This document shows positions 1 through 58,925 of a stretch of DNA of 64,000 nt, piece by piece (within the stretch, counting starts at the first letter, position 1; each line of letters begins with the position of its first letter). Below the pieces are notes generated by a model. That model saw only the letters and a list, made by a program, of their open reading frames with translations, made no database searches and was not told where the DNA came from. The stretch is from Lingula anatina (lineage: Eukaryota > Animalia > Brachiopoda), in the NCBI GenBank assembly GCA_051362555.1, contig CM120646.1, positions 12,524,001 to 12,588,000 on the forward strand, read 5' to 3'. The position numbers and the translations under genes were made by a program.

Positions 1-3000
1 AACCACGACCATGGAATCTGGTATTATTGCTGTACCTTTCTCCATCATTATCATGATCTTCTTCCCCAGGTATTCTGTAGCCAGCTAAGTTCAGCATATC
101 TCTGCACATAGGATCAAAGGCGGGGTGAGGATTACCAGAGTGTCCCTGGATACTGGAAACAAATATATCACTTTATTTCACGACTTATTAAGATGTTTTA
201 AAAGCAAACTTTCACGCGTTTCAGGATTTTTTTCTGCGAAGTGTACATGACCTAGCTGCAGATATTTTACCGATCTCTCGAGAAGTACTGAGAATGTTAG
301 ACAAGTAATATGTTTTTTTCTCCATAGGTAAATGAACAGGACACAGTAAGACACGTTTATAGCAGATATACGTGATTGAATCTTTGTACTTTGTAAAAAT
401 ATCACTTCAAGGAAGCGCTAAAACTTATAAACGTCATTTTATTGCTGGTAATGTGGCCCTCCAGCTAGGTTTATACAGGAGTGCAGCTTGGTTTATACAT
501 TATTTATACATGTAGTATCTTACCCAGGCGCTATGTTGACCTTCAGGACCCAAGATTTCATGTTCTGTCCAGCAGTATACCAAACACTTACCCAGGTGCT
601 ACGTTAACTTCCAGGACCCAGGGCTTTAGGTTCTTGTCCAGCAGTATATCAAAGCCGAACAGTTCATGTCCACTGTATTTGCTCAGCAGGTACCTCTGTA
701 CTCCCTCAAACATATCTGGTTCCCCGCTGTTTAAAAGTATGAGAATAACCGTCACTGTACATTTAGGACTCAAAAACATCTGCCTTTCCTTATTTATTTA
801 CTTATTATTTACTTATTATTATTATTCAGTTGCTACAGGCAACAGAGAGGATAATTACTTTTAATAACAGAAATCAAATCGAAGGGTGTACTACCGGCGA
901 TAAACATGTGCATCAACCTTTAGAAAGAGAAATGTAAATTTAAAATAAAGTAACCTGATTATCGTCTTTAATGTGATGTCTTTGATCTCCTCCCAAATCG
1001 GCTCGTGGTCGGTTCCATCTTTAGTTTTCAAATGCTCCCATAGCTTATTAAATGACCTGACAACAATAGAAATAGCGTTTAAACTATTTCAGCACTATAA
1101 ATGCAACAGTTGTTCCAGATATACACCGACGTTTTAAAAACTGGATGACGCGAAATATATAATTAATGCTCTTAATTTGACAACTCTAGCCTATATCAGC
1201 CGCTTAGGAAAATGTATACTTCTCACTTATATTAATATATAATAATTTTAGTATTGGAGTATGTCAATGGTACCGATAGGTGGGCCAATGTTGGGAATTT
1301 ACGAGATGCTTGGTTGTCTGGTTGTTATACATAGTAAAATCAAATATGTGGGTAACCTTTTAACGATCTACATAAATGCAGGTGACACTTTGTTTCGTCA
1401 GGGGAGTATAGATGTTTGCCTTTAGTTGCATGTAACACCAGGAACAATTACTTGCGAATAGTAACGTGGGGGAATTCTATGTACAGTATAGCACACTTAC
1501 CATTTGTGTCCAGTTTGCATAGAGTAACGTAGTTTGTAGTCCGGGTTTTTCTTATTCACTTCAACGTTAGTGAGATGGATAGTTTCATCAAAGGCGCGTG
1601 TTGTAAACCTAAAATTAAAATATTTATATAAATAAACTACACTGGATTGCAACCGTACAAGATGAAGAAGTAGCTTTATGAGGCAATACAGTCTCTGTCT
1701 TTGTCAGAAATCATCCCGGTTTTGTGTTCTTGACTTGTTTTGAAAAACAAAGATATAAGACAATATAAACATTATTTCATGCACACTCTGCTCATATCTG
1801 GCTTCCCCGAAAAGAAATAAAAAATATACAGATGCTCAATAAAAGTTCCTTTCATGATCACACAATTTGAAGAAAAAAAATTAAAAGACATAATATCTTT
1901 GAAGACTGCACGATCAGTACAAGTCATTAATCATTGTATACTTGCGACATCAAAACTGTCACGATTGCCTTACATGAAAAATCAAAGAACTTAATTGTTT
2001 ATAAACGAATACGTACTTCTTAGTAGCAAATCTGACAAGGCCATCGCGGTACACATACACTCTCAGTGGGTCGACGCTTGTGACGAGGACTAAAACCCGC
2101 AAGTCAAACTTATATCCATTTATGAGAAAGGGGTTTGGAATGTATCTGGAAATGCACGAGCACGAGCCTCAGCATATATATAGTTTTCAACTTAAAATAA
2201 TTTGTAACAAACGAACAAAGAAAAAAAGCTTTTCCTCGTCAGAGGAGGTATGATGAAATCAGAAATGTAGGCCCAATTTATTTCATTGAAAAGTGGTGGC
2301 GATATTAAAGGAGTAAGACATACCTTTGCGCGACGCGTCTATGTTGTAATGGAATCTGTCCAAACTGATGAATCACTTCAATGCCTTTGCCTCCGTAAAA
2401 ACAATACTGGTGAATAAAAAATGATCCCTTGTGAAAAACAATTAACATATGTCAACACTCAAAATATACCTCGTACTTTACTAGTTAATTTCAAAGATTT
2501 AAAATTCAATAAAGACTGACCCGGTAGAACTTCAGACCTCCTTAGTTCGACCTACACCTGAAAAGTTTTGCCGCCACATACGAGCTAGGTTGTACTTATC
2601 TACTACTTCTTAACCCAAACTAAAGAATACTTTAAAAAATGATTTTCATTTAACAATATTACCGGTTTTAAAATCCACAGCTGGTTCTCTGGTCCGCTCT
2701 CCCAAGCCTTCTTAACTGCTTCCATCTCGTCAGGTGTCAGATAGGTAGGTGGGTGAAAATTAAATTGTTTACCGTGAGCCATCTTCATTTTTCGCATCTT
2801 ATGTGCTAGTTTATCCTTACAGCCGATAGACCAGTTGTTTGGTAGATGGTTATACTCAAAGAAGGAAAAATTAATACCTCTTATTTGTAATCGAACTGTC
2901 TCTTAGGTTAATACATTTTGTAGATTTTTACCATTGCATTTCGTTCAACTACTTACACATCACGATTTTGCATGTAATGCATCACAGAAAGATAAATCAT

Positions 3001-5131
3001 CATTAATATTGATAAGACCGTAATCTAATTACCCTTCGCCCACCGCACAAAAAAGAACTGGGCCCCGAATCTCGAAAGCATCGTGTATTGCGAATCGCTA
3101 TATCAAACAGAGACTACAATGTATTATATGGGGCGGGTATGTGCGAGTTATGGAATCGAGACGCTTGCGCATGGTCGCAATGCCCGATGCTTTCGAGATA
3201 CGGGGCCCTGAGGTTTTATAGTGTTTTACAGTGCATCAGTGCATTACTGTACATTTAAAGGACTATATTGTTCTGTCCGTGTTTAACAACTGGTGGGGAT
3301 GTTCTCATTTCTATTGGTAAAGGTATGAACATTAAATATCTTTTATATCATGTACATCAACGTGTTGTAAACATCATTGATGTTAGAAATCCGTTAACAC
3401 TAAGAAAGTGTTGCATAAGAATATAATTGTATGACCTATTTACATATACAACTGTATCTGACCTATCGATAGAATTAACTTTTGAATTCTGTGGAATTAA
3501 CCCGTTCGTATTACCTTTTTATTGGGTGTAATGGTTTTGAACATGTGTGTTTCACTTGGTGGGAAACACCCGGTGTAGCGCCCCACCCACATGTTATCAT
3601 CTGGAAATGCACTGTTGTTTTACTAAGTAAGATTTATAAAGCAGTTTGCAAATGCAAAGCTGTCACTGGTTTAATTAGACGCACTTTAATAAATAGATGA
3701 ACACGAAGGACCACCAGTAATACTTTCTCTAATTACCTTTTTTAAATAAAAGGGTTAATTTTCTATTTGATTTCAACATTGAAATAAATAGTTATTTATC
3801 TACCTTTTAAATGAATCCCAGCACAGGTAGAATTTTGTTTTTTAAACATGTAAGAATCATGTTAATGTACATACCATCAGTGAGGGTGTATCCAGACGCG
3901 AACGCTATGGAAGATATGAGAGGAGAGCCGGACTTGTACCAAAACAAACGACTCTTGATGCTATCTGGAAACGCCTCTCCTACAGCAATTAATGCAGGCA
4001 AGTGATAAATATTCACTTAATGCAAATTAATGAAGCATTTGATTCTGTTTAATTATGTTGCGAATAATTTGATTTTCTTCAAATTTGGGTCGCTTATCTT
4101 GTTTCCAACATACCAGCGTTTTCTTTAATATTTTACTCCAGGAGACACTTAAGATTGTTAATCTGACTGCATTAAGCGAAGATCCCCTAGGAGTTATAAT
4201 CTTAGCATTAGCTAGGATGACAGAATTCATTGTAAACGACCCCTAACAAATACAGGTTGCACCATAATAAATGGAGAACTTAATGAAATTAAGTGTAATG
4301 GTTGAAAATGCATATAGCATGGCACATAAAACGCAACGGTGAATTAGAACTTACTTTGTTGTCCAGGCAGCACAAAGTTAATGACAGGTGGAACATTAGA
4401 GAACAGGCTGGGTATCAGCGCAGGCAGTAAAGGCTCCTGTACCTTCCCTGAAATGGTTTTATATTGAGTAGAATAAATGATAGTGCCCTATGACTGCAAC
4501 CTTTTTTTTTAAATTTCGGAATAAATTATTTTGAGCAATGAGGGTATAATGATATTTAAGACTTTTCAAATTGCACTTTAACAAGTAAGTATACAAAATA
4601 ATTTATAATATAATATAATATAATGAGATAATTATGAACAGGGATAAAATATATATATGATGGATGGATTCTGCAGCAGTGCCTGTAACAATTAATAGAA
4701 TAAAGAAATATACATTTTCGAAATCAAACGCCACATTATTTTCTTCTCGTTTACCTTTAAGTGGTGTTAGTGTGGTGTCACCAGCATGGATTTGGGAACA
4801 TTCCTCTTCACTTGTCGATGTCCTTTTTAAGCAGTGGTCAACTTTAGGTTTTGGGTCTGCACATATCACTTCATATACTTTTCAATGAAAGGTAATATAA
4901 TCTTTATAATTTTGGGAAAAAGGGTTAAAACTAGAATACTTAACTACAACAATACGCGTACTATCTCATTGTTTGTCGCACATCTAAGATGATACAATAT
5001 TTCCACATGTCTTCAATTACAAAATTACAGCAGACTAAATTTAAAAAATACTTACCTTTGGAATAGCCAGGGTGATCAAAAGGAGTAAATATAAATACAG
5101 CCCATGCTACAAACGTCTTCAATTGAGCCAT
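1..5131 (-). CDS. TTLL4: TTLL4-like tubulin-tyrosine-ligase-family ATP-grasp ligase, spliced, 3' end outside the window
   Basis: Phase-consistent GT-AG exons: 5131-5056, 4856-4755, 4447-4355, 3979-3875, 3600-3515, 2854-2663, 2406-2324, 2145-2017, 1608-1501, 1056-955, 726-592, then 152-(36 or window edge). Motifs: [126 protein letters not shown]. These are collinear with TTLL4, but it is probably a divergent paralog rather than the orthologue. Confidence 0.9.
519..586 (-). pseudogene. Decayed tandem duplicate of the 3' half of TTLL exon 726-592, including its donor site
   Basis: cttacccaggcgctatgttgaccttcaggacccaag...tgtccagcagtata mirrors 587-648. It reads FGILLD(frameshift)[14 protein letters not shown]|gtaag. 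Confidence 0.75.
3059..3209. mobile_element. MITE with terminal inverted repeats, in a TTLL intron
   Basis: gggccccgaatctcgaaagcatcg ... cgatgctttcgagatacggggccc. Related termini occur at about 14459-14555 and 38354-38450. Confidence 0.7.
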
Positions 5132-5749
5132 GTTGTTTTTCAACTGTCACGCTGATGGGTAGGAAATTTAAGTACCTCAGTGACCCTATAATTAGGAAAG
5201 GTTAACCTGCTGGTAGCGGTGTTTAACATTCCGTCACACGCTGGTAACCACACACAGTATCACGAAGGCATATGTAGTAAATAATGCACTGTCCACGAGC
5301 CCGATATCACGATGCTATCGTGTATTTCGGGCGAGGGGGTAACAGCTGCTTTATTTGTTATACATACAAAGGGAAATCGTGCGTGTTCTCCACCCAACCC
5401 CACTAACTTTGAATACATACCACGGGGCTGATATCAAAACAAAAGGATTGCAGGGACAGATACAATGAATGAGACGGAGTGACTGCCACGTGCGAAAGAT
5501 GGGCAGGAAATCAGCCAACTACTCACAGAAAACCACTGACCCATGTCCCTGTCAATACACACGCAACCACAAACCATTCACGCAAATGAAAATGATTGGA
5601 CGGTGACCGCAATTAGGCAGTAAACGCGGGGAAAGTCCATTCTTTGATATCACCCCATGCGCACTTTGCTCAACCAGGGCTACAGATTGATTTTTCACTG
5701 GATATTTGAAGATTCTGTGTGGCCCATTTTTCCTCTGTGGCCCCATGAT

Positions 5750-6290
5750 GTAGTTAAATTTATTTATTTCCGTGACAATGCCGAATATATACAAATATAA
5801 TACAATAATGTGAATATATAAGTAACGGCCCAGCCCTATGGGCTTACAAAGTCACCGGTTACCAAACATTAGTTATATTGAAGCTTCTTTCTGACCTGAA
5901 AGCAGTTAAAGAGAAACCTCGCTGTGCTTCTATGAAAATCTGTAAAAAGCACCTGAGGTCTCTCTTTAACCTCTTCCAGGTCATGAAAGATAAGATCACC
6001 CACTTTTACTTTTTCAAACCATTTTTTCCTTAAATTTTTATAAATTGGACAATCAAATAAAAAATGATACTCGTCTTCTACTTTTTTTGTGTTACAAAGA
6101 ATACATAGTCTGTCATCTAATTTTTTTGTTAACAAAGCGGCCCGTTTCTACATATAATGGAAGAACCCCTGATCTAAATTGGGCCATGATCGATCTTTCT
6201 GCAGCTTTTAAATTATACTTAACATAATTTTCCACAACGAAATTTTCTTTTTCTTTTCTATAGACCCTTAACTTGTAATGCAAAAGATAA
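5750..6290 (-). mobile_element. 5'-truncated non-LTR retrotransposon (LINE) 3' end with C-terminal Cys/His zinc-knuckle region
   Basis: Frameshifted ORFs read ..RSIMAQFRSGVLPLYVETGRF / RLCILCNTKKVEDEYHFLFDCPIYKNLRKKWF. The 3' tail sequence (ttatttccgtgacaatgccgaatata) recurs at about 7040-7120. Confidence 0.8.
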
Positions 6291-6316
6291 ACACACACAC
6301 ACACACACACACACAC
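6291..6316. repeat. (CA)n microsatellite
   Basis: Direct observation. Confidence 0.9.
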
Positions 6317-6540
6317 TGGTGGAAAAGGTTGTCCCACCTCCAATGCCATGTGCTTTTATTTACAAATGATCAACTCACAGGTGTAAATTGAAATAAACGG
6401 TGCCTTTTATTCCAGATGCAATATCCATCATGATAAATGGTACAAACATACGAAATAGCGTCGAAGATACCCATATTTAATATCATTAATTCACATTTAT
6501 AACATGTAACCCTTCAAATGCCATGTTTCACTGTGATTTC

Positions 6541-6708
6541 CAGAGGCGGATTTAGGCCGTCTTCTAGGTCTTCCGGAAGACGGTCAGATTTTTAAGTTTA
6601 CATTGTCGGGCATCTAATGTTTTCTGTCAGAAGACGGTCAAAAATGGAGGATGGATCAACAAAGATAATTTGGAAGACTGTCAGAAAATATCTCTGGATC
6701 CGCCCCTG
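6541..6708. mobile_element. MITE of the CAG(A/G)GGCGGAT...ATCCGCCCCTG type
   Basis: Inverted termini, flanked on both sides by ATTTC (candidate target-site duplication). Confidence 0.65.
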
Positions 6709-6794
6709 ATTTCTACAGAGGTAAAGAAATGCATGTCCATTAAATTGAAAAGACACCACCAAATATCGCCAAATTCACACACAATTAGCATTAA

Positions 6795-7032
6795 GATACG
6801 TTTCTCCTACACCATTTTTATGCAGGCAAATGAGAAATATTCACTTAATGCAATTCAATAAAACGTTTGATTCTATTTAATTATGTTGCCAAAAATCTGA
6901 TTTCCTTCAAATTTGGGTCCCTTTTCTTGTTTCCAACATATTCACCAGCTTTTCTTATATTTTACGCATCTCCAGCTCGTTATGTAACCTGTTAATCTGA
7001 CTGCATTCAGCTCGGGTTCCCGAGGGGTTATG
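6795..7032 (-). repeat. Degenerate copy of the TTLL intron and acceptor segment at about 3968-4200
   Basis: atgcaggcaa.tga.aaatattcacttaatgcaa...cttcaaatttgggtc.ctt.tcttgtttccaacata...ttaatctgactgcatt is shared with 3992-4175. Confidence 0.75.
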
Positions 7033-8269
7033 TAGTTAGTTAGTTAAATTGATTTATTTTCGTGACAATGCCGAATATACATGTATACATATATAATACA
7101 TAATACAATAATATATATAGTGTGCATAAGCTAGGATGTTAACATAAAGGTCAGGTGCCGTGTGTGTTTACCGCGTGCTGCAATTATGTACTGATAGCAG
7201 CGTGCCTTGTTTTAAACAAGGGCAAGGGCAACAATTCTGTTTTGTGGGATATTGTTCTTCTGAAGGGCTTGGCGGAGTTGGTCCAGTTCATTAAGAGATT
7301 GGTGTTCCTCGACTCTGCATTGAACACTCCAATTCATGTCACAGGTGCTCAGTAGAGTTAACATCGGGGCACAAAGCTGGTTGCCCCATCCTCAGAACAC
7401 TAAGGTTCTTCAGCAAATCACTTGCCAAACGAGAATTGTTAAAGCAAGTGTGCTGACACGATGAATAATAATAATAATAATATATTAAGATTGCAACCCA
7501 GTGGGCTGAAGTTGTACATAGAATGTTAAAAACATTATAATGATAATAAAATGTTATATTTTTGAGTGAAACTGAGTTAAAATACTGCTACTTGAACTTT
7601 AGCATTACTTTACTGAGGATAAAAGACAACATTATAGTATTGGAAATTTAAAAGTGCATATGGAATAAAAGATCATCGGAATCTATTGTATTTATTATTT
7701 GTACTTAAAAGATGATTTGATTGCTCAATGAAAATGTGATTCAGTTTGCCAGAGGGTTCAGTTATTTTGTAAAAGCCCCCCTTTCACTGGACGGCGTCCT
7801 GTGATATTGCCCCTGTTTGAGAGTAAAAAGATTACACTTAACGTGCCGATAACTGACCGATCATTGAGCATTCATTTTGCGACCAAATCAATGCTGGTGC
7901 CTCCTATCTACGACCACAGTGATGGACGCACAAAGGACACAGTGTAAAGGCCCCTTAATGGCGGTGAGCTGCAGATAATTATCTGAAAATGGTTGCCAAA
8001 ATGCCAAACATGATGATCGAAGTTTTATTTGACTGTGCGCTATGACATTTAGTAAATGGTGCTTTCCAACCTCTAAGATAATTAAAAGTCATTAAAGCTA
8101 TCTAGAACAAATGTATCCTAACTGTACACGGTTTTCGTTGCTTGAAATAAAAAGCAACCTGAAATAAATAAAAACATAGTTTTTTCTTTACAAAAACATA
8201 ATGAGCAACCACGGCTACCAGTATTTTGATTAACTGTATTACCACTCAATTTTTGGTGCGTCAGTAGAA

Positions 8270-8397
8270 ACGACACGATATAATTGGATTATCATTCAGT
8301 TGCATCATTCTGCTGTCTGTCATAGTAAAGACTGGAAGCGAGGGGATCTTTGACGGTTGGATGTATTCGTCAAGTGGAAGTGCTTTTTAAGGGAAAG
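8270..8397 (+). promoter_or_regulatory. Distal paralogous Inr/non-coding first-exon module of peptide gene 1 (donor degenerate)
   Basis: Homologous to 10279-10413. Inr tcagtt is present but the donor is changed to gaaagt. Confidence 0.45.
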
Positions 8398-10278
8398 TAC
8401 TAACCCCTCGTTTTCGATCGAAAATGCTAGTTGTACAATGTTGCTAATGTAGATTCACTATATACATGTGATCATATTCCATTATTGCATAATGACATTT
8501 TTATTTCAAAACAATTGTAAAAATGTGCTCGAAGCAACAAACATCACTGTTATTATCATCATCACCATTTAACACACAGGCTAGTAATCCGAATAACTAT
8601 CTAATGTGGCATTGATACTAGTGATGCTTGTGATCCATTGTATTACTTATGTTTAGAGACTATAGTCATTATAATCTGACCATCGGAATCCATTCTGTAT
8701 CGGTACATGAGAGTAATGAACGCAATATAAGTTTTATGTAAGACGTAAGATGTAAAATGTTTTTTTTTTTAAATAATGGTGTATTTTTAAAATGGTCACA
8801 GTAAATATTCACGATGGATAATCATAAAAGCAACTTCGACACTAACATATAGTACGTATTCGCGACAGAAAAAGGCAACTAACACACTGTTGGTGCAGGA
8901 AATGGAGAATAAACAAAAAATACTTAAATGCGCAAAAACTTATTTATTGGGTTTTTACGACCACTATACTGCAGATAGTTACAAATATTCAAGCTCTCCG
9001 AACAAAAGGCATCATTTTATAGCTAAAAACAACCAATATTGCCAAACATACAAACCTAGCTGCCAAAAACCCTTAAACTAGGTGAATATATTTTTTTCTG
9101 CGACCACTTTAATGAAAATAATGCAAAAAAAGACATCAAAACTCCCCAGAACGAAAGACACGGACACAGCATCTTATTTTTGAAGTCTGTCTTTCGTAAT
9201 CAAAAAGGCGGCTTTGTTTTTAAAACAACACATTTTGATTTCAGACAGCAAAGATGATCAGCTATTTTTGATAATTGTTTATTGCCCAGGATTACATGCA
9301 GTTACAGCACATTTCTTTTGAAAATGGACATATGGGCATCAACAGTGTCCTTCCTTTTGCAAACTCTATAAATAATCTGGCCAGACACACCATATCTAGG
9401 GGCTATCTGGGAGAAATGTACACTGTATACCCTCCTCCATCAGAGTAGCAATTTCTTTTCTTCCTTCACTGCCGGCTCCTGTACGTTTGCCATGGTAGGA
9501 ATGTGACAGCCAGACGTATATTACACCTTTAATGACAAACTTTATATCGTTAGTAATGGATGAAAATTCATCACTGGTTACGCGAGCAATTAACCGCGAA
9601 TCACTTTTTACGATCGGTCCTCCAAGCCAAATAGTGCAGTCTTTACACAGGTGGTGCATTACTTCTTTAATGTTGGTGAATTGCTTGGAATAGTCACAGT
9701 ACACAAAAGACAACTAAGACACTCTTGGTGCAAAAAAGAGAGAATAAAACCAAAATACTTAATTGCGCAAAAACGCATTGAATTGGTTTTACAACCACTA
9801 TATTACAGATAATGCAAATAATACATCAATGCTTTCCGAACAAAAGGCATCATTTTATAGGCAAAAACAATCTTGTATAATGTGAAAAATAGACACTTGG
9901 TTTACAAAACCGCCGATCTTGTCTAGGAACAAGAACGTCACATCATTAATTTTGATAGTCATTTATCGCTCAGAATAGTAATAGTGCATATCCACCGTTG
10001 AAAGAGCAACTAAGACACTCTTGGGGCAGAAAAAAGAGAACACAGCATATTAACTCATCTGTTAAAAAGCTTTATAATTTACTGATTTTTTGCGACCACT
10101 GTAATACAAAAATACAAAAATACATCAAATCTTTTCAGAACAGACGGGTCTAAATTTTCCGAAATGTACATGTGTCTGTTATGGTTTGTTAAAATGCAAC
10201 CTGATAAATTAAGTCACAGTTTGTTTTTACTAAGGATACCAGCATCTTTGGATGATTGTATCACCACTCAATTGTGCC

Positions 10279-10413
10279 ACTAAATAGAACATATAATTGC
10301 ACTATCAACATTCAGTTGCCTCATTCTGCTCTCCGTCGAAGTGAAGACTAGAAGCAAGGGGATCTTTTAGGGTTGGTTGAATTCGTTAAGGTGAAGTGCT
10401 CATTAGGGTAAGT
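10279..10413 (+). promoter_or_regulatory. Putative core promoter and non-coding exon 1 (about 10314-10407) of peptide gene 1
   Basis: TATA-like taaata about 30 nt upstream of Inr TCAGTT, followed by a gtaagt donor at 10408. An acceptor (ttacag) lies 3 nt before the ATG, so an upstream exon is required. The module is conserved in the paralogs. Confidence 0.6.
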
Positions 10414-10888
10414 TCTCTTTTTTGGGAGTTAACAATAAGGGAACACAAACATGGCAGATAAAACTAAAATTTATGTACATTTAGAATTGGCAAGCCAATT
10501 AGAGAATGAAATTACCCCATAAGCATTACATCTGGACCAAAGCAAAGCGTAGAATTCATTAAGAGGCAGAACGAAAACTGGAAAAGGGGATTCACCCTAT
10601 GTTACTATGTTCACACAACAAGATTAAATGATAAGAATTGTTTGCAATATAGTGCTTTAAGAAATGTGAAAGAGATCATTTATGCCAATACCAAACATCG
10701 GTAGTCACTCAGCCATAACGACTCCTGCAGTTTTCAATCAGAAATGTTATTTGTATTGTGTGAATAATGTATTTATTTAATGAAGAAAAACATTTGCCTC
10801 TATTGTACGATTGCATTTTCCAATGCGTAAACAACAGATATTTGTACATCATACGTTGTATTTAGTATTCCGGCTGTAATTACAGGAT

Positions 10889-12385
10889 ATGGTCGGATCC
10901 ATAGTTGGCATCCTGGTGGCAGCATGTCTAACAGCTGCTGTAATTAAAGAAACAGAGGCGGTTTGCTGCAAAGCGGTTACAGGAGGTTTCTGCAAAGATT
11001 GCACTGTTGTAAGTTATCAGTTAATTTGCAATTCCGTGTTGATATGAATACATCAGCCATTGGTTTACTGAGCAACTCTGTTGTTTATGATCAAATGGAC
11101 ATGATTATTTTTGAATATTTACATATTAACTGTGCTTGGGAAATGAGACGGCAGCATGGTGAAATAGCAATAAATGGCAACCTTTTATAGTGGACTACCA
11201 CAGGGAGGATGGAACGCTGCCATAGTTTCCAAGCCCTCAATGCTATCTTTGTGGTCATCAGTGCTTTACATTTCGAGTGCTTTCACATCCCTGTTAAATT
11301 CACGCGTTTAGACTAATTTAGTGAATAAACATAATTTACAACCATTAAGTTGCTCTAACACAAAATATCACATCATAAATTATATTTTCTTTTCAGTAGC
11401 AGTACTCTAAAGCCATTCTGTTCCATGTCCCGGCTCCACACGCACACAGATTTATCATAATATGTAGCGTAGATCTAGCAATATGACATTTAAAAAAGGA
11501 TTGAAGAAATGGACCTAACGGTGAACAGATTTACTTAGTGCTGTTGTCATTCCAGGGGACCCCGTATTGCGGGTATCAGAGTTGCAATATTTTTGGCTGT
11601 GCTTGTGGCGGGGGATGTCGGAGAGACTGTGGTTACAGGTTAGGTGGTTACGGGTGAGTTTTATGAGAATTGGTCGATGGTATGAACACAATACCTAGTT
11701 ATTATAATTTTATTAATGCCGTGAACTATAAATGCTTAGTACATGCAGAGCACACCCTTTTTGAAGAATTACTGCAGAATAAAAAAATATCTAAAAACCC
11801 TTCACCTTTTTTTCGCTTAGAAATCATTACCTCAATATACTTGTATATGGCAATGTTCTATCTTTGATATCTAAAACTTTTACAAAAGGACAACCATTAT
11901 GGTTTTTGAGAGAAACCGACCGTCTACATGCACATGCACCAACAAGCGATCAGTGACAGATGAAGCAAGTGACACTGAGAGAGACAGGTACTAGTATACG
12001 GGGGTAGAAGGGGGGTAGAACTTGTTCCCTTAATATTAAAAAACATATACACATGTAAATCTCTTAAACTGTTTACTGTGCATTGGGCGCTTTTTGTGTA
12101 TTTTAATCTCATTGTGTAACCATAAGGCACAGATCGTATGTTGGAGAAATATATTTTCTTTTTATGTTTCTCAGTTCTAGAATATTTACTTTTCTCAATC
12201 CAAGACGTTTTTCTAAACATAATACATACATGTATCAAACATGTTTGCACAATTAAACTTGAAAAATATTCCAACAGTATTTCCCTTCAAAACAATTTTG
12301 TCTCAGAGATGATCACATTTTCAGGGATGCTTTGGTCGAAAAAAGAAGCATGGACGCAGATTCCATCGCCATGGCCGGAAACTAA
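10889..12385 (+). CDS. Mytimycin-like 12-Cys secreted peptide precursor, copy 1 (125 aa)
   Basis: Exons 10889-11008, 11556-11653, 11889-11987, 12325-12385. Signal MVGSIVGILVAACLTAAVIKETEA; mature VCCKAVTGGFCKDCTVGTPYCGYQSCNIFGCACGGGCRRDCGYRLGGYGTTIMVFERNRPSTCTCTN; then KR-SVTDEASDTERDRDALVEKRSMDADSIAMAGN*. Confidence 0.9.
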
Positions 12386-41456: not shown

Positions 41457-41541
<85 letters not shown>

Positions 41542-46668: not shown

Positions 46669-46738
46669 AGGACAATTCCCCCCCGGACAATTCCCCCCAG
46701 GACAATTCCCCCCAGGACGATCCCCCCCCCCCCCCCCC
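46669..46738. repeat. 15-bp tandem repeat (GGACAATTCCCCCC[C/A]) x3-4 plus poly-C, probably a transposon terminus
   Basis: Direct observation; it sits at a break in homology with the 29050-30000 flank. Confidence 0.7.
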
Positions 46739-47266
46739 GAAGAATATATATTTATATACAAATATAAAATAGAAAGTGTAAAGTTTAAAACATGTAATCC
46801 ATTTTATTAATATTTTTAGTGTCAACAAACTGAAATGGTGCTAAACAAGTAATCTCTCTAAACAAAAGATTATCAGGATTTCTTCTCAACGTTATACTAA
46901 AAAAAAAAAAAATTAAAAAACGCCAGTGGTGATCGAACTTTCAAAGTTAATTAAACGTTTCAGCAGCTGACAGATTTCTATTTGTGACATCTGTGAAATA
47001 TGTGGCCTTTTTAGGGTTTAGAATATTTTTTTATTTACCATGATTCCCAGGAAATGAAACTTCGATACGAAAATCTAAATGTGGGGGACCCTTTGGTAAA
47101 CAAACATAGTTTCTAATCTGTGTACTAAATATTTTCAAGATCGTGCCTGTGACATTATTCCGAATGATAACTGAATATCATATAACGAGGTACAATCGAA
47201 CTAATGTGAATATGCCTCGACTGAAACTAGCCTTCTATAGAAAGAGGCCATAAGAACCGGATCATC

Positions 47267-48847
47267 TTAGTTCTTGGCCATGGCGATGGAATCTCCATCC
47301 ATGCTTCTTTTTTCGATCATAGCATCCCTGGAAATGTGATCATCTCTGAGACAGAATTGTTTTAAAAGTAAATATTTTTAGAACATATTCCACGTTTAAT
47401 TGTGCAAGAATGTTGGATACATGTGTATTTTATGTTTAGAAAAACGTATTGGATGGAGAAAGTAAATATCCTAGAACGGGATTCTAGGGAAAAATAAAAA
47501 CAAATATATTTCTCCAACATACTATCTGTGCCTTATCGTAACCCAATTGAAATACACAAAAAGCACACAATGCAGAGTGAACAGTTTAAGAGATTTACAT
47601 GTGTATATGTTTATTCTGAATATTAAGGGAACAAGTTCTACCCCCCTCAAAACCCGTATACTAGTACCTGTCTCTCTCAGTGTCCCAAAATACACTCATT
47701 GGATCATTTGCATCATTTGCTTCTTCTGCCAATGATCGTTTGTTGGTGCATGTGCACTTCATCGGAATGTTTCCATAAGATGCTACATATCTGAAATTTT
47801 CACCAATATATCGAAGATAGCACATATACAGGCATATTGAGCAAATGATATTTAAGTGAAAAAAAGGCAAATAATTTTCAAATCTTTTTTAACCTGCAAT
47901 TATTCTTTTAAAATTTTGGCCTGCACGTACTGTCAATGTGTAGAAAACGAACGTTAATAAAATTCGAATTACGAAATGTATGTTTTTTCCCCACAGCATC
48001 AACAAATTCTCATAATACTCACCCGTGACCACCTAATTGGTAACCACAGTCTCTCCGACATCCCCCGCCACAAGCACAGCCGAAAATATTGCAACTCTGA
48101 TACCCGCAATACGGAGTCCCCTGGAATGACAAAGGCACTAAGTAATTCTGTTCACTGTAAAGTCCATTCCTTCAATCGTTTTTTTTTAATGCCATTTTTG
48201 CTAGATCTACAGTAGATATTATGATAAATCTGTGTGCCTGTAGAGGGAGGTTGAGCAGAATGGTTTTAATGTACTGTTTTGCTACCGAAAAGAACAGATA
48301 ATTTATATTTTTACTTTTGTGTTAGAACAAATGAAGTTGATGTCGGTTGCAAATAATGATAATAATCACAAAATCATTCTAAACGCATGGGTATAATAGG
48401 GACGTGGAAGCGCCGGGAATATAAAGCACTGGTGACCGCAAAGATAGCATTCAGGGCTGGAAAACGGAAAAAAAACTCTGTCTTGGTGGCAGTGTTCCAT
48501 CCTCTCTGTGGTGATCCACCATAAAAGGTTGCCACTTATTGTAGACTTCATCAAATTTAACAAAAAATTGCTATTTCACAATGCTGCCATCTCATTTTTC
48601 AGATAATATGCAATTAATAAAACATGCAAATATCCATGTCCATTTGATAATTAACAACAGAGTGGTTTAGTAAACCAACGGCTGATGTATCCATATGAGA
48701 CATAGAATTGCAAATTGGCTGACTTACAACAGTGCAATCTTTGCAGAAACCTCCTTTAAGCGCTCTGCAGCAAACCGCCTCTGTTTCTTTAATTACAACA
48801 GCTGTTAGACATGCTGCCACCAGGATGCCAACTATGGATCCGGCCAT
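47267..48847 (-). CDS. Mytimycin-like 12-Cys peptide precursor, copy 6 (133 aa)
   Basis: Exons 48847-48728, 48120-48023, 47790-47668, 47327-47267. Mature VCCRALKGGFCKDCTVGTPYCGYQSCNIFGCACGGGCRRDCGYQLGGHGYVASYGNIPMKCTCTN; then KR-SLAEEANDANDPMSVFWDTERDRDAMIEKRSMDGDSIAMAKN*. Confidence 0.9.
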
Positions 48848-48902
48848 ATTCTGAAATTACAGACGAAATACTATATATATATTTTTGAAATTACAGACGA
48901 AA

Positions 48903-48905
<3 letters not shown>

Positions 48906-48950
<45 letters not shown>
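48906..48950. repeat. (TA)n microsatellite, next to a short duplication of the acceptor region (tgaaattacagacgaaatacta x2)
   Basis: Direct observation. Confidence 0.9.
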
Positions 48951-48954
<4 letters not shown>

Positions 48955-50375
48955 TACAAATAACTATTGGGGATATATTGGAAAATGCCATTATACAATA
49001 GAGGCAAATGTGTATCTTTATATAATGAATATATATTACTCACACAATACAATTAGTATTTCTGATTGAAAACTGCAGGAGTAGTTATAGTGAAGTGACT
49101 ACAGATGTTTGGTAAATGATCTCTTTCACATTTCTTACACTCTTTCACATTTCTTACAGTACCGTATTGCAGTCCACGTGACAAAATATCCTTATCCTTT
49201 TTATCTTGTCATATGGACATAATAACAGGAAATAAATCCCATTTTCCAGTCTTCGTTTTGCATCTTACTAAAGTCTACGTTTTGCTAATGCTTATCTTTT
49301 GCTTATGGGGTCATTTAATTCCCCAACCCAAAAGTATGGCTTGCTAATTCTAAATGTACGTGATTTTTTACCCTTAAAGAGCACTTCGACTTGACGAATG
49401 CAACCAACCCTAAAAGATACCCTTGCTTCTAGTCTTCAATACGACGGAGAGCAGAATGGGACGACTGAATGATGATAGTCCATTTATATGTTCTATTTAG
49501 TAACACGATTGAGTGGTGACTCAATCATCCAAAAATGCTGATATCCTTAGTTAAAACAAACTGTGACTTAATTTATCAGGTTGTTTTTTGACATACCATG
49601 TCAGACATATGCAGTTCGGAAAATTTAGAGGTTTCCGTTCTGAAAAGCTTTCATGTATTTTTGTATTATAGTGGTTGCAAAAAGTAAAACATAAAAATGA
49701 TGCCTTTTGTTCGTAAAACTTTGATGTATTATTTGCATTATCTGTAATATAGTGGTCGTAAAATCAATTTAAACCGTTTTTGGGCAATTAAGTATTTTTG
49801 TTTTATTCTTTCTTTCTGCGCCAAGTCGTTATTTTTCACATTATAGAAGAGGGTTTTTGCTTATAAAATGATGCCTTTTGTTCAGAAAGCGTTGATGTAT
49901 TATTTACATTATCTGTAATATTGTAGTGGCAAAACCAGTTCAAACCGTTTTTGCGCAATTAGGTATTTTTGTTTTATTCTCTCTTTTCTGCACCAAGAGT
50001 GTCTTAGTTGCCTTTTGTGTATTGTGACTATTCCAAGCAATTCTGCAACATTTAAAAAGTAATGACCACCAGTGTAAAGACTGCGCTATTTGGCGTGGAG
50101 GACCGTGATTCGCGGTTTATTGATCGCGTAACCAGTGAAATATTTTCATCCATTATTAAAGATATAAAGTGTGGCATTAAAGGTGTAACATACGTCTGGC
50201 TGTCAAATTCCTACCACGGTAAACGTACAGGATCCAGCAGTGAAGGAAAAAAGAAATTGCTACTCTGATGGAGGAGGGTATACCGTGTAGATTTCCCTTA
50301 ATTATCTCAGTTCACTTAATTATCTCTGTTCAACCCAAAGTGCCTTAATTGCTTTTCCCATCCTGAAATTGTGTT

Positions 50376-50629
50376 GTAGGGGAGAGCAGGGCTAGTTGGA
50401 CCCCGGGGTAAGTCCCCCCCCCCCCCCCCCCATCAAGTCTCTTTAATAAAGTAACTTTAAGATGCTAAATTATTTCATTTGGGCTCACTGCCAACGCTTT
50501 TTTAGCACTATTGGATACGGTCACTTTACAAAATACAGTGATCAATACTTTTACCCCATAGTTACTTTGTCATAAATTGAGGGGGGGGGGCAACTTACCC
50601 CGAGGGCCAACTAGCCTCGGTCTTCCCTA
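50376..50629. mobile_element. MITE with long inverted termini
   Basis: taggggagagcagggctagttggaccccggggtaagt ... acttaccccgagggccaactagcctcggtcttcccta. A half copy lies at 15830-15872. Confidence 0.75.
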
Positions 50630-52714
50630 ACTGCATGCAATTCTGAGCAATAAACGGTTATAAAAAATAAGAACACTGTCTTAGCTGTCTGAAATCTGTG
50701 GTTTTATGATAATGTGTTTAACAAATTACAAAAGACAGATTTCAGAAATAAGAGCCTGCCTCCATGTCTTTTGTTGTATTATTTTCATTAAAAATCACCT
50801 TGTTTAAAGGTTTTTGGCAACTAAATTTATATGTTTAGCAAGATTGGTGGTTTTGCAAACCAAGGCGTTATTTTTCACATTATATATATAGAGGAGCGTT
50901 TTAAGCTATAAAAGGACGCCTTTTGTTTGGAGAGCTTTGATGCAATATTTGTAACTATCTGCAGTATAAAGGTAGTAAAAACCCATTCAATAAATTTTTG
51001 TGCAATTAAGTATTTTTGTTTTATTCTCTCTTTCCTGCACCATCAGTTTGCTAGTTTCCGTTTCAATCGCGAATATGTACGGTAGCTACAGTGTATTCTC
51101 ACCAACAGTGTCAAAGTTGCTTTTTTCTTTCGTCGTGAATATTTACTGTGACTATTTTAAACAATACATCATTGTAAAAAATAATATTTTACGTCTTATA
51201 TGTACATTCTGGGACTTGTATTGCGTTAATTACTCGGTGCTGAACCGATACAGAACAGATTCGAGGGTCAGATTATAATGATTTCAGTCTCTATATCTAA
51301 TCAATAAAATGGATAAGTATCACTTGTATCCGTGCCCCATGAAAATAGTTAATCGGATTACTATCCAGTGGTACTAAATGGTGATGATGATAATAATAAC
51401 AGTGATGTTTATTGCTTCTATGAACCTATATTACCTACATTATACAACTAGTATTTTCGATTGAGGGGTATTTTCATACCGTAGTGAGTGCAGATGTTTA
51501 GTATTACCATATATGATTTCTTTTGCATGCGATTTTTAAAATACCGTACGTATTGCAGTCCATGTGACAAAATATCACTGACCTTTCCATCTTGTTACGT
51601 AGACATAGTAACAAGAGTCGAATGCATTTTCCAGTCTTTGTACATGTTTATAACGTATGCATATTTTCTTCAGGTGGAATTGGATCGGTTGTAAGGCTAA
51701 GGGATCTGTCTCTCTGGATTTCTTAAATCTACAATACGCTACGATTTGTATTGAATGTTTTCCTCCGTTTTATGGTTCTAAATGTACGTAATTAGCCATT
51801 GTATCTGCCCTTCCCATGGTACCCTATTGTTAACTCCCAATAAACAGAACTTACCCGTAAAATGCACTTCCACTTGACGAATACAACCAACCCTAAAATA
51901 TCCCCTTGTTGTCTTTGTTACTTCAGAGAACAGGATGAATGTAGTGATCATGTGATATATACTGATACACCAAAAACTGAGTGGTAATACAATCATTCAA
52001 AAATGCTGGTAGCCTCGGTTGCTTATTGTAATTTTGTAAAGGAAAGCTAGTGGTTTTATTTTCCAGGTTGCCTTTTTCAAAACTATGCAAAATCATGTGC
52101 AGTTAGGATACTCAAGTTCTGGATAGGTTTAATTACTTTTATTTATCATAGAGATTGGAAAGCACTATTTTCTAAATAGCAAATGAAACTCTGATCACCA
52201 GGATAGGGCACGTTGGCATACAATATCAAATAATCACCTACTCTGCGTTAAAATATTTTTTTCATTGCGCATAAGTACAATGAGAGCTTCTCTGTACAGG
52301 ATGCAGATTCCTAAGGTAATACAGTACAAAGAAACCGATCAAGAATGCTTTAACCTTTCTCTGCATACTTCTCTTATTTAAAATAAACCACTGCCTCAGT
52401 AGTTATATTGGATTAGAATATCTTGGTCCTTTCAAAGAAACCTCATCTCCAAAGAGGATTTGTACCATCTTGAAATATACTTATATTGTTTATAGTGGGT
52501 AATTTATTTTCCAAAGATGGTAAAGATCACTTTTTTGTTAGCAACTATCGTGGATTTTACAATGTTTGTAGCAACTTATTGCATTATTGGGATATCTTCT
52601 CCAAATACGATATTGGATAAATTTCTTATCCCTTGGATTACTATCATGCTGTTTATCCAGAATATATATATATTAAACTAAACCTTCGAAAGCGTAACTT
52701 AAAGGCCATACATA

Positions 52715-55700
52715 CAGCTAGGCCAATAAGACCGTTCACAGTAGGTCACGGTCAGTGCGACCGTGACTCCTGATAACCCCCACGTGGATAATAACAGGGC
52801 AAATAGCGACAGTTTAAGCTGTTAAGTTATAAATCGTAACCATCTCGGACTCCCCGCTGTCTACATCGTGTCCCGTCAAGCAGCCTGTGCAATCATACGC
52901 CCCGCTAGTCCCAAGCATTGTTCTGGTGTAGAACGGCACGTGCCCTTTGTTAAGACATGGAAGACTAAATGTTGGGTTTAACCATGGTTCAAGCACTGAC
53001 GATATTTCTGTTTATTCACCGCATTCCAAACTTCGTAGACATTTTCAAAAATAGAATTTTGTAATTGAATGAAATATAATTAATTTACCGATGTTGCCCT
53101 TTCATCTTAATTTTGGCTTCTAAAGGTGAAACGATAAGATTCACGATAACATGCTCAAGCCAATTGAAAAAGTGAAGTATGAATGAAGGGCTAGATTAAT
53201 TAGACAGCTTGATTTAGGTTTGTCAACTGCCACATCGACACGCGCTACCTGTGAGCGTGTGCCTTTACATGTACACTCATTAGGCGTTCTGAAATAATTA
53301 AATACTTTTGATTTCATAAGTCAAATGTGTTGATTATTACAAAATGACAAAAATGAAATAAAAAATACGTGCAACTAATCACCTGCTGTAAAAAGTTTTA
53401 ATTACGTGTTTGGTTGAAATTCGTTTAAATTTCAAGTTTGATGAAACAGCGTTATCATAGCAAAAGATGCAATCTTTTCTGTACACTGCTGTTTAGAGTA
53501 TATACAATTGATTGGTTGGTTGTTAATGTGCACTGTATTTAATGATATTTCTTGTTTATCCCTTGACTTTGAGTGCAGAAATCCTGCTGAAGCGGTGCGA
53601 AGTGCATACAATAAAATCGCCCTGGCTCTCTCGAAAAAGTATACCCCCCCCCCCCGCCCCATATTTATTTAACCATTTCGCCTCTTCAGCCCTGATTGTT
53701 ACATTTAACATCAATAGGAAAGATGTGAATTAAATTTCTTGTTGCTAAACCCAGTGACATTAATATAAGGTTGTTTTAATAGTACATAAAATCGCACCAA
53801 GACCTTATTGGAGTACATATATATAATTACACCCTTTACAGCAACCGGACCCCTTAATTGATGTACACTGTACAATGCACGTATATACACTGCAATTGCC
53901 GCTTTCACCTCCTTTATTGTTCTGTATGAAAAGAAAGGAAGTTGTTTGAGTTTAGTTCAATAAAGGCAGTCCCTTAGTCCGAGGTGCACAGCTTTTAGCT
54001 TCTGTTGCAGATGATTTAACTTAAAATAAATTAATTGATATGCTGCTTTTTCTTTAGGGACTTTTAATTAGGCCACATTTGGAGTAAATATGAAATTATA
54101 CTTGAAACATCTAAGTGAAATCTATCTTGACGTCCTGACAGATGTGATTAGATAAACGTTTATGTACGAACGTTGCTTAGTACTGTATAGCCAATGCACA
54201 TCTCCCGTCTCGACACAATGAAGAGATAACTTTGAGGGAAATTGTCAAGACTCTTTCTTCTATCATACCGGTATATTAATTATCGACGGAGACGCACGAC
54301 CAGAAATTACCTCGTTTCGATGTTTAACGCACTAATGTAGATCAAATTAACCTTTTCAGGTCTATGCCTGACATCACTTAACAAAACTCCAGCATAACAT
54401 TGATTGCCAAGTGTGGTTGTTTTATGTCGGCGACACCATTTCAACCTTTGTAAAGAGTGACTTACTGCATTTCTTCAGGAATGCGGGCTATAAGCAAGCA
54501 AAATGATATACAGTATTTGCCCTTATAAATGCATTTGTATTTAAATATTTAGAATAGACTATTAGTGATAAAGTTGTTTTGAGACTGCCTGTTTTTCAAA
54601 ATGTCCTCAACATTCCTCATATAAAGATGATAGTTGTAGAGAGAATTGTGCGCGATATATTTCGAGAGGAGAATAAATACGTACGTAAGTACATGTATAC
54701 ACAAGTACAGTTAATGTACGCTGCAGGAACAGGAAAATATTTCGGCGTCATTCTTCAAATATCAACTGTACAAGTGAGTCCCTTTTTGATGCTTTTTAAG
54801 TTTCAATACAAGTAAATGACTGTCCCACAGACCAGTTGTACAAATGTTTTTCGATTTTTTCTTAAATATGTATGTTTACATGTGTGGTGTATCAAACTCC
54901 ATCGCATTAAAGGATGAGACCAGCTTGTGACCACCATTGCAGATAAAATCGCAACTATATTGTAGGGCTTCTTATCTGATGCACGTTTGCACGTTGTAAT
55001 TGCTCCTTTCGCCCCCGTTATTGTTCTCTCGGAAAAGAAAGGAAGTTGTCTTTGTCTTCAATACGTTTGAGCTTAGGCAGTCCCTTAGTCCCAGGTGCAC
55101 AGCTTTTAGCCTCTGTTGCAGATGATTTTATTTAAACTGAATTAATTGATATACTGATTTTTTCTTAATGCAATTATAAGTAAGCAACATTCAGAATATA
55201 TATGTAACAATTATTACACTTGATACATCGTAGTGAAATCTATCTTGTCGTCTTGACAAATGTGTGTATATTTGTTTGTGGACCTTTAACGGTGCTGGAG
55301 AGGGTACACATTTGCACCCATCTTAGTGTCATGAAGAGTTTACTTCCTTATCTCTGTAGTGGCGATGCTCTTCATAGTAATTTTTTTAATATCATTCAAC
55401 TAGAAAAAAGACATTTTCATAAATTAACCAAGGCTTATAAACACGTCCTGAAATAATGATAATGTACAGCGTATTTAATTTTTTTGTTTATTTTTATTGA
55501 CTTGTAGATTGAGTGTTATGTTGCCAAATACTATTATTTGCAGACAGATATGGAGTGGTAGAGTGCGATAATGGTGGAGTCGTTAGTGTCGACACGTCAA
55601 AGTCATACTATCATTTTTTATTTATTCTCTTCAAATTGAGCGTTGGTTTGTGTTTACACTTGTTTATTTAAGTGAATATGCTGTTAATTGTATTTTCTGC

Positions 55701-56043
55701 TAAACCCGCTTTATATATTCCCGTTTAACTGACGAAGTACAGTAAGTAGATGCTTTGATTTTTGAAGTAATAAGAAGCGGTGCAATATTTACCGAACAGC
55801 AATTAGCGGCTATTAATGACATCACGCCTAAATGCACACGCTTCCTGAATAAGACGGTCGCCCTCTGCCTGGTTGAGAGATCGGGACACGCTCTCCTGCA
55901 ACGCGACTGGCTAAATATCCATTGTTAAACGATCCTCCTACTTCCATTGTTCAAAAAGTGGGCGGTAGGCTTGGTCACGGTGAAGAGTAACCGTGTTCGT
56001 AGACACGATCACGGTAGTGAGAACAGATTAAAAAGCCTAGCTG
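52715..56043. mobile_element. Putative 3.3-kb non-autonomous TIR element, TA target duplication, with an internal ~270-bp direct repeat
   Basis: TA|cagctaggc...cacggtc..gaccgtgac at the left; gtcacggtg..accgtg...gcctagctg|TA at the right. 53880-54150 resembles 54990-55260. Confidence 0.55.
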
Positions 56044-57361
56044 TATATACTCTACATATATTTAGCCATCAAACATGTCCTACTGCTAAACACATCCAGG
56101 CTAAAAGGGTGTACCATGCTTAGGTGCAAAACATGCTTACACGGTAGGAGCTAAATGTGTTGAAAAAAATCAGACAAAGCAGGCACTTGGATGTTTTTAC
56201 AGTGTACGTTGTAATTGTGTACTTGTGTTTTGTACCAAAAATAAAAACATTTCAGGTCATAATGTCTTTTCATGCAAGAATGTTGTCTAACAACTAAGGT
56301 TGATACAATGTTGTTATCTGACGTTGATCCAACTTTCAAATCCAACGTTTATCCAACATCTTATCAACGTTATGGTTCAACGTTGGGTTATTGACCAGTG
56401 TTTTATTGTAGCTCATCACGGCCACGGAACAAAACGAAGCATATATCAACAGGCATTTCATTTATTTATGTTGTTTTAGGACCTTTCCGTTCTTTTCCCG
56501 TTCTTTCTTTCAAAAACCCAGATCTCATATAAAGAATGTGAATGTATAGTCCGATGTGTCGCTACCAACTAACTGACTACCATAATATGCAGTGGTTGAA
56601 TTGGGTAGTGCTGCTTTGGGCTTGTCGAAGCTTGGCTATGGCGAAACATAGTTCTGGTTTCAACTACTACATAGAACCCTTTGCAATTTTGATTGTTAGT
56701 GGTCGGTTTTGCAGTTTGTAAAATGAGCTAAGCAGCATTTTACAAAATTGTTAATTTGTGGTAGAATGGCGCGAAAAAGACAGACATTGCCAGACAGATA
56801 AAGATTTTTGTGTCACACGGAACGGTACGTACTGTATGTCTTTATATATCAAATCCTTATTACGCAAATGAATAGTCTTCTATGAATGAGTAGTAAACAA
56901 GTAAGAGCAAAAGGAAACCAAATAAGAATGCAGCTGAATATTATTATTCTACGCAATCAGAAGTAATTGAATACGCATTTATAAATGACTTTTTGTTTCT
57001 TTAAAATAAATTTTAAGACCGAGGTCAAATTCCCCAAGATCAACTTTGTCTTCAACTGTGGTGATGAAATCGTGTCAATGCTTCTTTTTTCGGACAAAAC
57101 GTCCCTGGAAATTTGATCACCTTTGAGGCAGAATTGTCAAGTCAATGAACATATATTATCCAACACATTTAATCATTTGGAGCAAAGTGTGGCGTTTACA
57201 GTGCCCATATTTATGGTACAGTATTCCATTAAAATCAGATTAAAAAGCATTACCACAGGACGCACACTAAAAACGTTAATAGTACAATGAACGTATAGTC
57301 TATATTTAAAATATATTTGGGTTAACCCTTTCCTTGCATACCTGCCTCTATCAGTGCCATT

Positions 57362-58925
57362 TTATACACTCACTGCATCAGTACCATCACCAGCTTCATC
57401 TGTCACTGATCGTTTGTTTGAACATTCACATCTAGTAGGGACATAACCTAGTCCAAATTTCATTCTGAAAATAAATATAATTTATATTTTCCCTCCATTT
57501 TTGCTGAAACTTAAAATTATATCTTAAACTTGTAAATGATTTACCATACATAAGTATCATTCATATGATGATATTTAACTTAATGTATTTTGAATCCGTA
57601 AATTCAAGACACGTTAAATGCTTGAATGCCAGACAATATTTCTTTCTAATAGACGTACTTTTTATCCCTGTGTATGCCACCGCAGTCTTTTCGACATCCT
57701 CCATCACAAGAACAGCCGAAAATATTGCAACTCCCATATCCGCAAAACGGAGTCCCCTGAAATAATGTTGATAGTTCTATTCACCGTTAAGATGTAACTA
57801 CATGTATGTTTGGGTTGTATTCTCCCACCGGGAACGTTCCCTTATTTAAAATATACCTTTAATTTTACAAACCAGGTATTATTGCATTTCTATTGAGTAT
57901 GAAATTTAGTACATTAATTATGTACGTGCGGCAAGTGATCAATGAATAAAATAAACATAACTTATTTGTATGTTAGACGGAACACTTATTAATTGCTGCA
58001 GAAATACTGAAGTTACTGTTCACAACTGGAAAAAACACATTGGTATTCGCTATGTCCCATTTTTAATGAATATAAGAATAGAAGTTCTGGAAAAGTATTG
58101 ATGGTCATAAAAATAGTATCTGGTGCTGAGGAATGAATGGCACCCACGATGTTCATCGTGTCAGACCAAGGCCTAGTCGTTGTGGTAATCAACCTATAAG
58201 AGGCTATATCATTCTCATGTCAATAAAACAATAAATAATGTTATTTCTGCCATACAGCTACCTATGATGTATCGGCAATCACGGTCAAATCAGACATGGC
58301 AGTGAATATCCCTCATTTTAAGATGATCAATTTTTTTTTTTGCATTTCTGAAAATTAGGATGATGTCTGACAATGCCAACAAAGGTTCCCCTTTCTCATT
58401 AGTAGAGGAAAAACAGAAGTCACTAGTGGGCTTTATTCGGTCTTAAAGTGCAATTTTAGGTCACAGCAATAGTCTTAAAATCCTTTTAAGATACAAAATT
58501 ATCTAATATTTACGTAGGTGGTCAAGCAATGTTCTCCCCTAACAATGGAGAATACCTCCCCTCACGGAAGGAGAACATGTGTGGGGAGACGGTTGCATTT
58601 CAACTTAATTGCAAATCAACCCAGTTATGATCTTACTCATGGTTTAAGACCATGTAAGATTGTTTGTGATCTGAAATTGCACTTTAAGACCAATCAGGCG
58701 CACTAGTGTGTGAACTAGTACAATCACGCTAATTAACATGTACAAAAAATCGTATGTAATATCTTAAAAGAAAAAATAATAATTTCAACAGGCTTCATGA
58801 CTCCTTACCTTAGTGCAGTCTCCACAGAAACCAAAAGACATAAAGCAACAATCTGTTTCTGTTTCTTTAATGACAACAGCTGTTAGACACATTGCCAACA
58901 GTAAGCCAACTAGAGATCCGGTCAT
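57362..58925 (-). CDS. Divergent mytimycin-like 12-Cys peptide precursor, copy 7 (105 aa; stops in exon 3)
   Basis: Exons 58925-58809, 57756-57659, 57464-57362. MTGSLVGLLLAMCLTAVVIKETET-DCCFMSFGFCGDCTKGTPFCGYGSCNIFGCSCDGGCRKDCGGIHRDKKMKFGLGYVPTRCECSN-KR-SVTDEAGDGTDAVSV*. The homolog of exon 4 persists at about 57104-56980. Confidence 0.85.

Follow-up and report, generated by a model that had tools for sequence, protein, structure and literature searches.

We analysed a window of 64,000 nucleotides from the brachiopod Lingula anatina (assembly GCA_051362555.1, contig CM120646.1, positions 12,524,001 to 12,588,000), in which a gene of the TTLL family lies next to an array of seven related small precursor genes (g1-g7). 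Our reading, to which we give a probability of about 0.68, is that the two are neighbouring but independent. The TTLL gene would be an expressed, signal-bearing offshoot of TTLL4 that works as an ATP-dependent amide ligase of the secretory pathway, and the array would be a tandem group of Diedel/mytimycin-like genes with cleavable pro-tails. TTLL enzymes are known for writing the tubulin code in cytoplasm or cilia, and it is the signal-bearing family with its rebuilt pocket, likely a secretory-pathway family judging from its sequences, that we regard as the finding of note, more than its pairing with the peptide genes. A preliminary description of this stretch had proposed that a luminal TTLL adds amino acids to, or cross-links, the acidic tails of the neighbouring precursors, forming in an animal a cluster like those of peptides that are ribosomally synthesised and then modified after translation (RiPPs).

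The TTLL gene is read on the minus strand from a start codon at 5131, with an in-frame stop 18 nt upstream, and its 12 GT-AG exons together encode 461 amino acids without a stop before the frame is cut by the left edge of the window. Three of the exons match the Pfam TTL domain, and one is 97% identical to the Lingula anatina protein XP_013386992.1. Regarding its transcription, four RNA runs labelled as the same species were mapped on positions 1-7000 of the window. Among the junctions listed, stranded reads of runs X1 and X3 joined 10 of the 11 TTLL introns, including the joint of exons 1 and 2 (4 reads in X1 and 7 in X3), and none matched the joint 3979/4355; X4 and X7 (9.5 and 11.1 million records) had zero reads on the TTLL exons. 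An alternative hydrophobic frame of exon 1 was rejected, as its phase does not fit exon 2, the reads carry no indel and the paralog P0109 matches the chosen frame. Two local copies involve the gene itself: the end of exon 11 with its splice donor is tandemly copied inside the next intron (519-653; 82% over 67 nt), where the reads use the true donor, and a piece covering part of intron 3 and the beginning of exon 4 (3968-4197) is duplicated upstream of the gene at 6795-7031 (79% over 241 nt).

The TTLL alignment contained 226 rows, including the window model, and came from searches with P0001 and P0002. Every row in it that shares the signature of the window TTLL is a named Lingula protein. The members are P0002/P0234, P0013/P0185, P0109, P0091 and P0233/P0198/P0125, found on five scaffolds besides that of the window. 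In a quick maximum-likelihood tree of 54 chosen rows (P0001 and P0198 were among the rows left out), nine Lingula rows, the window model included, formed one side of a branch within TTLL4 with a Shimodaira-Hasegawa-like approximate likelihood ratio test (SH-aLRT) value of 100. Alignment and tree place the window TTLL in a TTLL4-derived clade of about 6-7 paralogs, which is Lingula-only within these searches. The fold model of P0002, made from an alignment of 118 sequences, has a predicted local distance difference test score (pLDDT) of 88 and a disordered stretch over the first 53 residues, and its best PDB match is TTLL6 (E 9e-33). The same searches returned short TTLL4-like proteins of bees (P0018, P0019 and P0024-P0026), which have an altered 175-183 loop, no Arg at 124/180 and no signal-like N-termini, and which represent a separate divergent TTLL4 lineage.

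We scored the N-termini with a home-made measure, an uncharged hydrophobic run of 8 residues within the first 25. Of the clade members, 8 have an intact start, representing 6 distinct paralogs, and every one of them has a signal-like N-terminus, as against 3 of the 206 other TTLLs that start with Met. By this measure the window TTLL has a predicted signal peptide, and the exon that carries it is transcribed. The premise of a luminal TTLL has therefore gained support, as this N-terminus is both transcribed and apparently common to the whole Lingula clade. By their number of sequons the clade and cytosolic TTLL4 could not be told apart, and the search of the N-terminus of P0109 against the atlas gave no usable match.

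For the active site we took residue roles and numbering from the preprint on mouse TTLL6 (10.1101/2020.06.07.139295), according to which K283 and K377 are invariant among glutamylases and the mutation K377A abolishes activity. The residues for ATP, Mg and phosphate are kept in the window TTLL (K125, K174, R219, R241, N264, D346, E359 and N361). Position 377 is F, being K in 91 of the 92 canonical TTLL4 proteins, and position 180, which is R in all 92, is G, neither the Arg of an initiase nor the Gln of an elongase. Furthermore, S266 is replaced by E, and R124 and S177 are both replaced by C. This Cys124/Cys177 pair is present in the 7 clade rows that cover both positions and in no other row, which counts as one evolutionary event. 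Both positions flank the ATP gamma-phosphate site in TTLL6 according to the same text (10.1101/2020.06.07.139295), so by analogy the two new Cys would lie close together. The pocket positions 265, 266, 283 and 377 vary between the clade paralogs. The cores of the clade are less basic, with net charges of +3 to +9, than those of the canonical TTLL4 proteins, which average +23.7 ± 7.5 (5/92 at 9 or below); TTLL enzymes rely on such basic charge in binding acidic tails. Because the catalytic residues are kept, R180 and K377 are lost and the core charge is lowered, the window TTLL is likely still a ligase, is likely not a glutamylase and, as far as its residues predict, is less suited to polyacidic substrates.

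We propose that in a TTLL4 duplicate the long N-terminus was replaced by a signal exon, and that the resulting protein would enter the endoplasmic reticulum and Golgi. There the carboxylate of a substrate would be activated by ATP as an acyl-phosphate and then joined to a non-glutamate amino acid or to an amine. The donor may be aromatic or basic, because position 377 is aromatic, as in TTL, and position 266 is an acid; since the pockets differ, separate paralogs likely use different donors. Its acceptor is probably a different secreted protein or peptide. As for the peptide genes, they would have spread by local duplication, one block (g1, g2) becoming inverted next to the TTLL promoter.

The seven precursor genes have four exons each and follow one plan, namely a leader of 24 amino acids, a cationic region of 64-67 amino acids, a dibasic site and an acidic tail. 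The core contains 12 Cys in all seven, and the site between core and tail is KR in five of them, ER in g2 and IR in g3. Exon 2 of both genes scanned, g1 and g7, scored above the Pfam cut-off for Diedel (23.9 and 26.6 bits versus 21.3). The core motif presumably resembles that of mussel mytimycin. From their sequences, g1-g7 are likely defence-peptide genes of a Diedel/mytimycin-like kind. Some copies show signs of decay, seen at 22271, 18890 and 57363 as the AC acceptor of g3 exon 4, the loss of the first KR in g2/g3 and the exon-3 stop of g7.

The tails had been presented as rich in Asp and Glu. They are indeed acidic, but they are Asp-rich and not Glu-rich: those of g1-g6, 38-48 amino acids long, contain 7-10 D and 2-4 E, and 'EE' occurs in one of the seven precursors. 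The tail that was quoted as an example is present in g6, although it does not stop where the quotation did and continues through the fourth exon, ending in DTERDRDDHISRDAMIEKRSMDGDSIAMAKN before the stop codon. The last residue of the tails is Asn, or Val in g7, whose tail is cut to 15 amino acids. A second KR lies inside five of the six full tails, three of the six have a 10-residue gap, and a single Glu is invariant in the tails of g1-g6. Among these six genes the ratio of nonsynonymous to synonymous differences (pN/pS), noisy on account of small counts, was 1.05 for the tail and 0.37 for the Cys core. An EF-hand register fits the tails by eye, single tail exons have no Pfam match, and the homolog P0089 has clear EF-hands. 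The tails are likely ordinary pro-regions removed at the dibasic site, any change made on them would likely be lost on cleavage, and in the sequences compared they bear no mark of a conserved enzyme substrate.

Regarding the adjacency, the preliminary description had placed the TTLL start about 3-5 kb from the promoter modules of g1, and the TATA- and initiator-like modules at 8278 and 10270 do lie at distances of about 3.1 and 5.1 kb, measured from the ATG of TTLL. A GTAAG donor ends the copy at 10270 and is lost in the copy at 8278. The head-to-head arrangement, which had been described for the array, applies to g1 and g2 alone, as g3-g7 share the strand of TTLL. The unit of g1 is inverted and has its closest counterpart in that of g4 (82% over 2.87 kb); in addition, the stretch 13991-14722 is 95% identical to 38186-38917 in inverted orientation. 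The duplicated units begin near 7.8 kb and none of them contains TTLL exons, and g7 lies 54 kb from TTLL on the same strand. Because the inverted duplicated block excludes TTLL and the divergent g7 lies on TTLL's strand, the head-to-head state is likely derived, although the array may have adjoined TTLL for longer than the inversion. Conserved microsynteny had been suggested as a check. The contigs that carry the other Lingula Diedel genes measure 255485, 214576, 304393 and 589510 bp, and those with the other signal-bearing TTLLs 98289, 285580, 945186, 1719974 and 477176 bp; compared by length in bp, none of these five TTLL scaffolds was any of the four Diedel scaffolds, in an old, fragmented assembly and with a Diedel search of 7 proteins. 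The placement of TTLL beside the peptide genes is real but likely incidental.

Several points weigh against this reading of independent neighbours with a secretory-pathway ligase. The cut-off of the home-made hydrophobicity score was chosen after the values had been seen, an earlier version with a 10-residue run passed over P0091 and picked out 4 TTLLs that are not in the clade, and the predicted h-region of the window paralog is short. K283, one of the two donor-Glu lysines, is retained in the window TTLL. The pN/pS of the leader, 1.06, is like that of the tail, and in likeness to an EF-hand the tails did not exceed shuffled sequence, as 177-385 of 1000 shuffles scored equally well. The scaffold comparison is weak, its Diedel search having returned 7 proteins that did not include the window's own genes. 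Finally, Lingula has about 34,000 genes (PMC4595640), so that a member of a family of about 7 would rarely come to lie here by chance, though the pair was chosen after the fact.

A broader proposal is that Lingula re-routed a tubulin-code writer to the secretory pathway and that the diversified, peptide-tailoring ATP-grasp ligases, each with its own donor pocket, decorate or cross-link secreted precursors, either the Diedel-like array or putative tubulin-tail peptides, which would amount to a RiPP-like system encoded by an animal; we consider this unlikely. Quite unlikely is also that the N-termini are not functional signals or that the enzymes are inactive, so that the clade would consist of TTLL4 duplicates that evolve fast and are cytosolic or tethered to membranes, comparable to the short proteins of bees. 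Short, divergent proteins of TTLL4 type whose 175-183 loop is altered do exist in bees and in unnamed records, and the failed atlas search would fit such duplicates. However, six distinct paralogs keep the uncharged hydrophobic N-terminal run despite little identity there, the catalytic residues are all kept, and 10 of the 16 exonic read variants over TTLL, among those listed, are synonymous and 6 are not. Similarly improbable, and ranked just below, is that the signal-bearing clade acts on putative secreted alpha-tubulin-tail peptides as an unlinked enzyme-plus-precursor system. The tubulin tail is the ancestral substrate of TTLL4, and a shared compartment would follow, but the lowered basic charge and the loss of R180 and K377 oppose standard tail glutamylation. 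That the luminal TTLL tailors the neighbouring precursors, on their acidic tails or on their cores, is very unlikely: the adjacency and divergent layout are real, enzyme and precursors are both predicted to enter the secretory pathway, the catalytic residues are kept, the altered pocket would suit a non-Glu or Asp-directed reaction and TTLL expression is restricted to 2 of the 4 runs, but the enzyme has lost a donor-Glu Lys and much of its basic charge, the tails are unconstrained, Asp-rich pro-regions that follow a dibasic site, with parts deleted or cut short, the orientation comes from an inverted block without TTLL while the most divergent copy, g7, is far off on TTLL's strand, no second TTLL-Diedel pair was seen on the other Lingula scaffolds (a weak comparison in a fragmented assembly), and the cores are already stabilised by their 12 Cys.

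Compared with TTLL4, the tubulin monoglutamylase, the window TTLL shares the TTL domain, the fold, the ATP/Mg/phosphate residues and 40-45% identity to animal TTLL4 cores. It differs in the signal-like N-terminus, the changes of R180 to G, K377 to F and S266 to E, the Cys pair and the weakly basic core, and the full-length paralogs of its Lingula-only clade have short N- and C-termini. Mussel mytimycin precursors are described as having a signal, a 12-Cys peptide, a dibasic site and an anionic EF-hand extension (PMC8004829). The genes g1-g7 likewise show a signal, a cationic 12-Cys region, a dibasic site (KR in 5/7), an anionic C-terminal extension and multiple copies, whereas their extension is shorter (15-48 versus 75 amino acids; PMC8004829) and carries a degenerate EF-hand that does not stand out statistically. 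They resemble the Diedel family (PF13164) in that exon 2 passes the Pfam cut-off and the products are predicted to be secreted and Cys-rich, and other Lingula members are annotated as Diedel; unlike Diedel as described in PMC3307722, they have 12 Cys instead of 10 and a pro-tail. That paper reports the family only from insects and insect viruses (PMC3307722). Graspetide clusters need an ATP-grasp subfamily of their own, a leader to which the enzyme binds and a stable association of enzyme and precursor (PMC8939145). The likeness here is an ATP-grasp gene beside small precursors containing Ser/Thr/Asp/Glu/Lys (PMC8939145). Nevertheless, the window enzyme belongs to the TTL family, nested in TTLL4, and not to the graspetide subfamily, the N-terminus of the precursors is a predicted secretion signal and not an enzyme-binding leader, a stable association was not seen among the Lingula scaffolds of a fragmented assembly, and on noisy counts the tails show no clearly constrained acceptor/donor core. 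We found no prior report of a secreted TTLL, a Lingula polyglutamylase or mytimycin, a brachiopod Diedel or mytimycin, or an animal RiPP/graspetide TTLL among the papers listed in our literature searches, outside of which lie most subscription papers and preprint supplements.

Table 1. Positions in the window of the TTLL gene, the precursor genes and the promoter-like modules
Feature	Position	Strand	Basis
TTLL coding exon 1, signal-peptide-like N-terminus	5056..5131	-	RNA-spliced to exon 2; hydrophobicity heuristic
TTLL exon 2, low-confidence linker, three Cys	4755..4877	-	gene model and RNA; paralog P0002 residues 1-53 pLDDT <50
TTLL exons 3-12, TTLL4-derived ATP-grasp core; gene extends past window	1..4447	-	Pfam, homology, RNA
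TTLL exons 3-7	4447-4355, 3979-3875, 3600-3515, 2854-2663, 2406-2324	-	
TTLL exons 8-12	2145-2017, 1608-1501, 1056-955, 726-592, 152-<1	-	
TTLL 5' untranslated region / approximate transcription start region	5132..5382	-	stranded read depth reaches bin 5149-5382
Orphan promoter/non-coding exon module, donor degenerate	8278..8401	+	sequence
Putative g1 promoter and non-coding first exon (TATA-like, TCAGT, GTAAG donor)	10270..10420	+	inferred from sequence
g1, Diedel/mytimycin-like precursor, 131 amino acids	10889..12385; exons 10889-11008, 11556-11653, 11889-11987, 12307-12385	+	
g2, precursor, 139 amino acids; first dibasic site KR to ER	17813..19514	+	
g3, precursor; exon-4 acceptor AC, dibasic site IR	22193..25195	-	
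g4, precursor, 130 amino acids; nearest unit to g1 (82% over 2.87 kb, inverted)	30534..32040	-	
g5, precursor, 131 amino acids	40645..42769	-	
g6, precursor, 139 amino acids; contains the tail quoted earlier	47267..48847	-	
g7, most divergent (66-70% coding-sequence identity to others); exon-3 stop gives 15-amino-acid tail	57360..58925	-	

Further modules of promoter and non-coding exon are found at 8278, 15278, 27510, 37673, 51908 and 59500, upstream of the gene-proximal copies, and may be alternative first exons or orphans. The stretches 5869-6147, 13360-13758, 3060-3208 and 6541-6710 hold remnants of the long interspersed nuclear element type (zf-RVT and ALKBH8_N matches), a hairpin element in a TTLL intron that is like a miniature inverted-repeat transposable element, and a read-rich multi-copy repeat. 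A neighbouring gene ends at 62276-63377 on the minus strand, and its final exons there encode Kazal-like modules in tandem (Kazal_2 E 0.0045, below the cut-off). We also considered a shell-matrix role and found no support for it, as neither the supplements of PMC4595640 nor the text and supplement of PMC13425148 contain terms for TTLL or Diedel; at least 2 of the 4 mentions of 'tubulin' in the latter refer to beta-tubulin.

The peptide array alone extends the Diedel/mytimycin-like group, and the RiPP-cluster reading, although little supported, would matter greatly if true. The clade would provide naturally occurring variants from which to learn what determines the donor specificity of TTLL enzymes. 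If our reading is true, a secreted TTLL family with rebuilt pockets would be a new animal route to the ATP-driven amide modification of secreted proteins.

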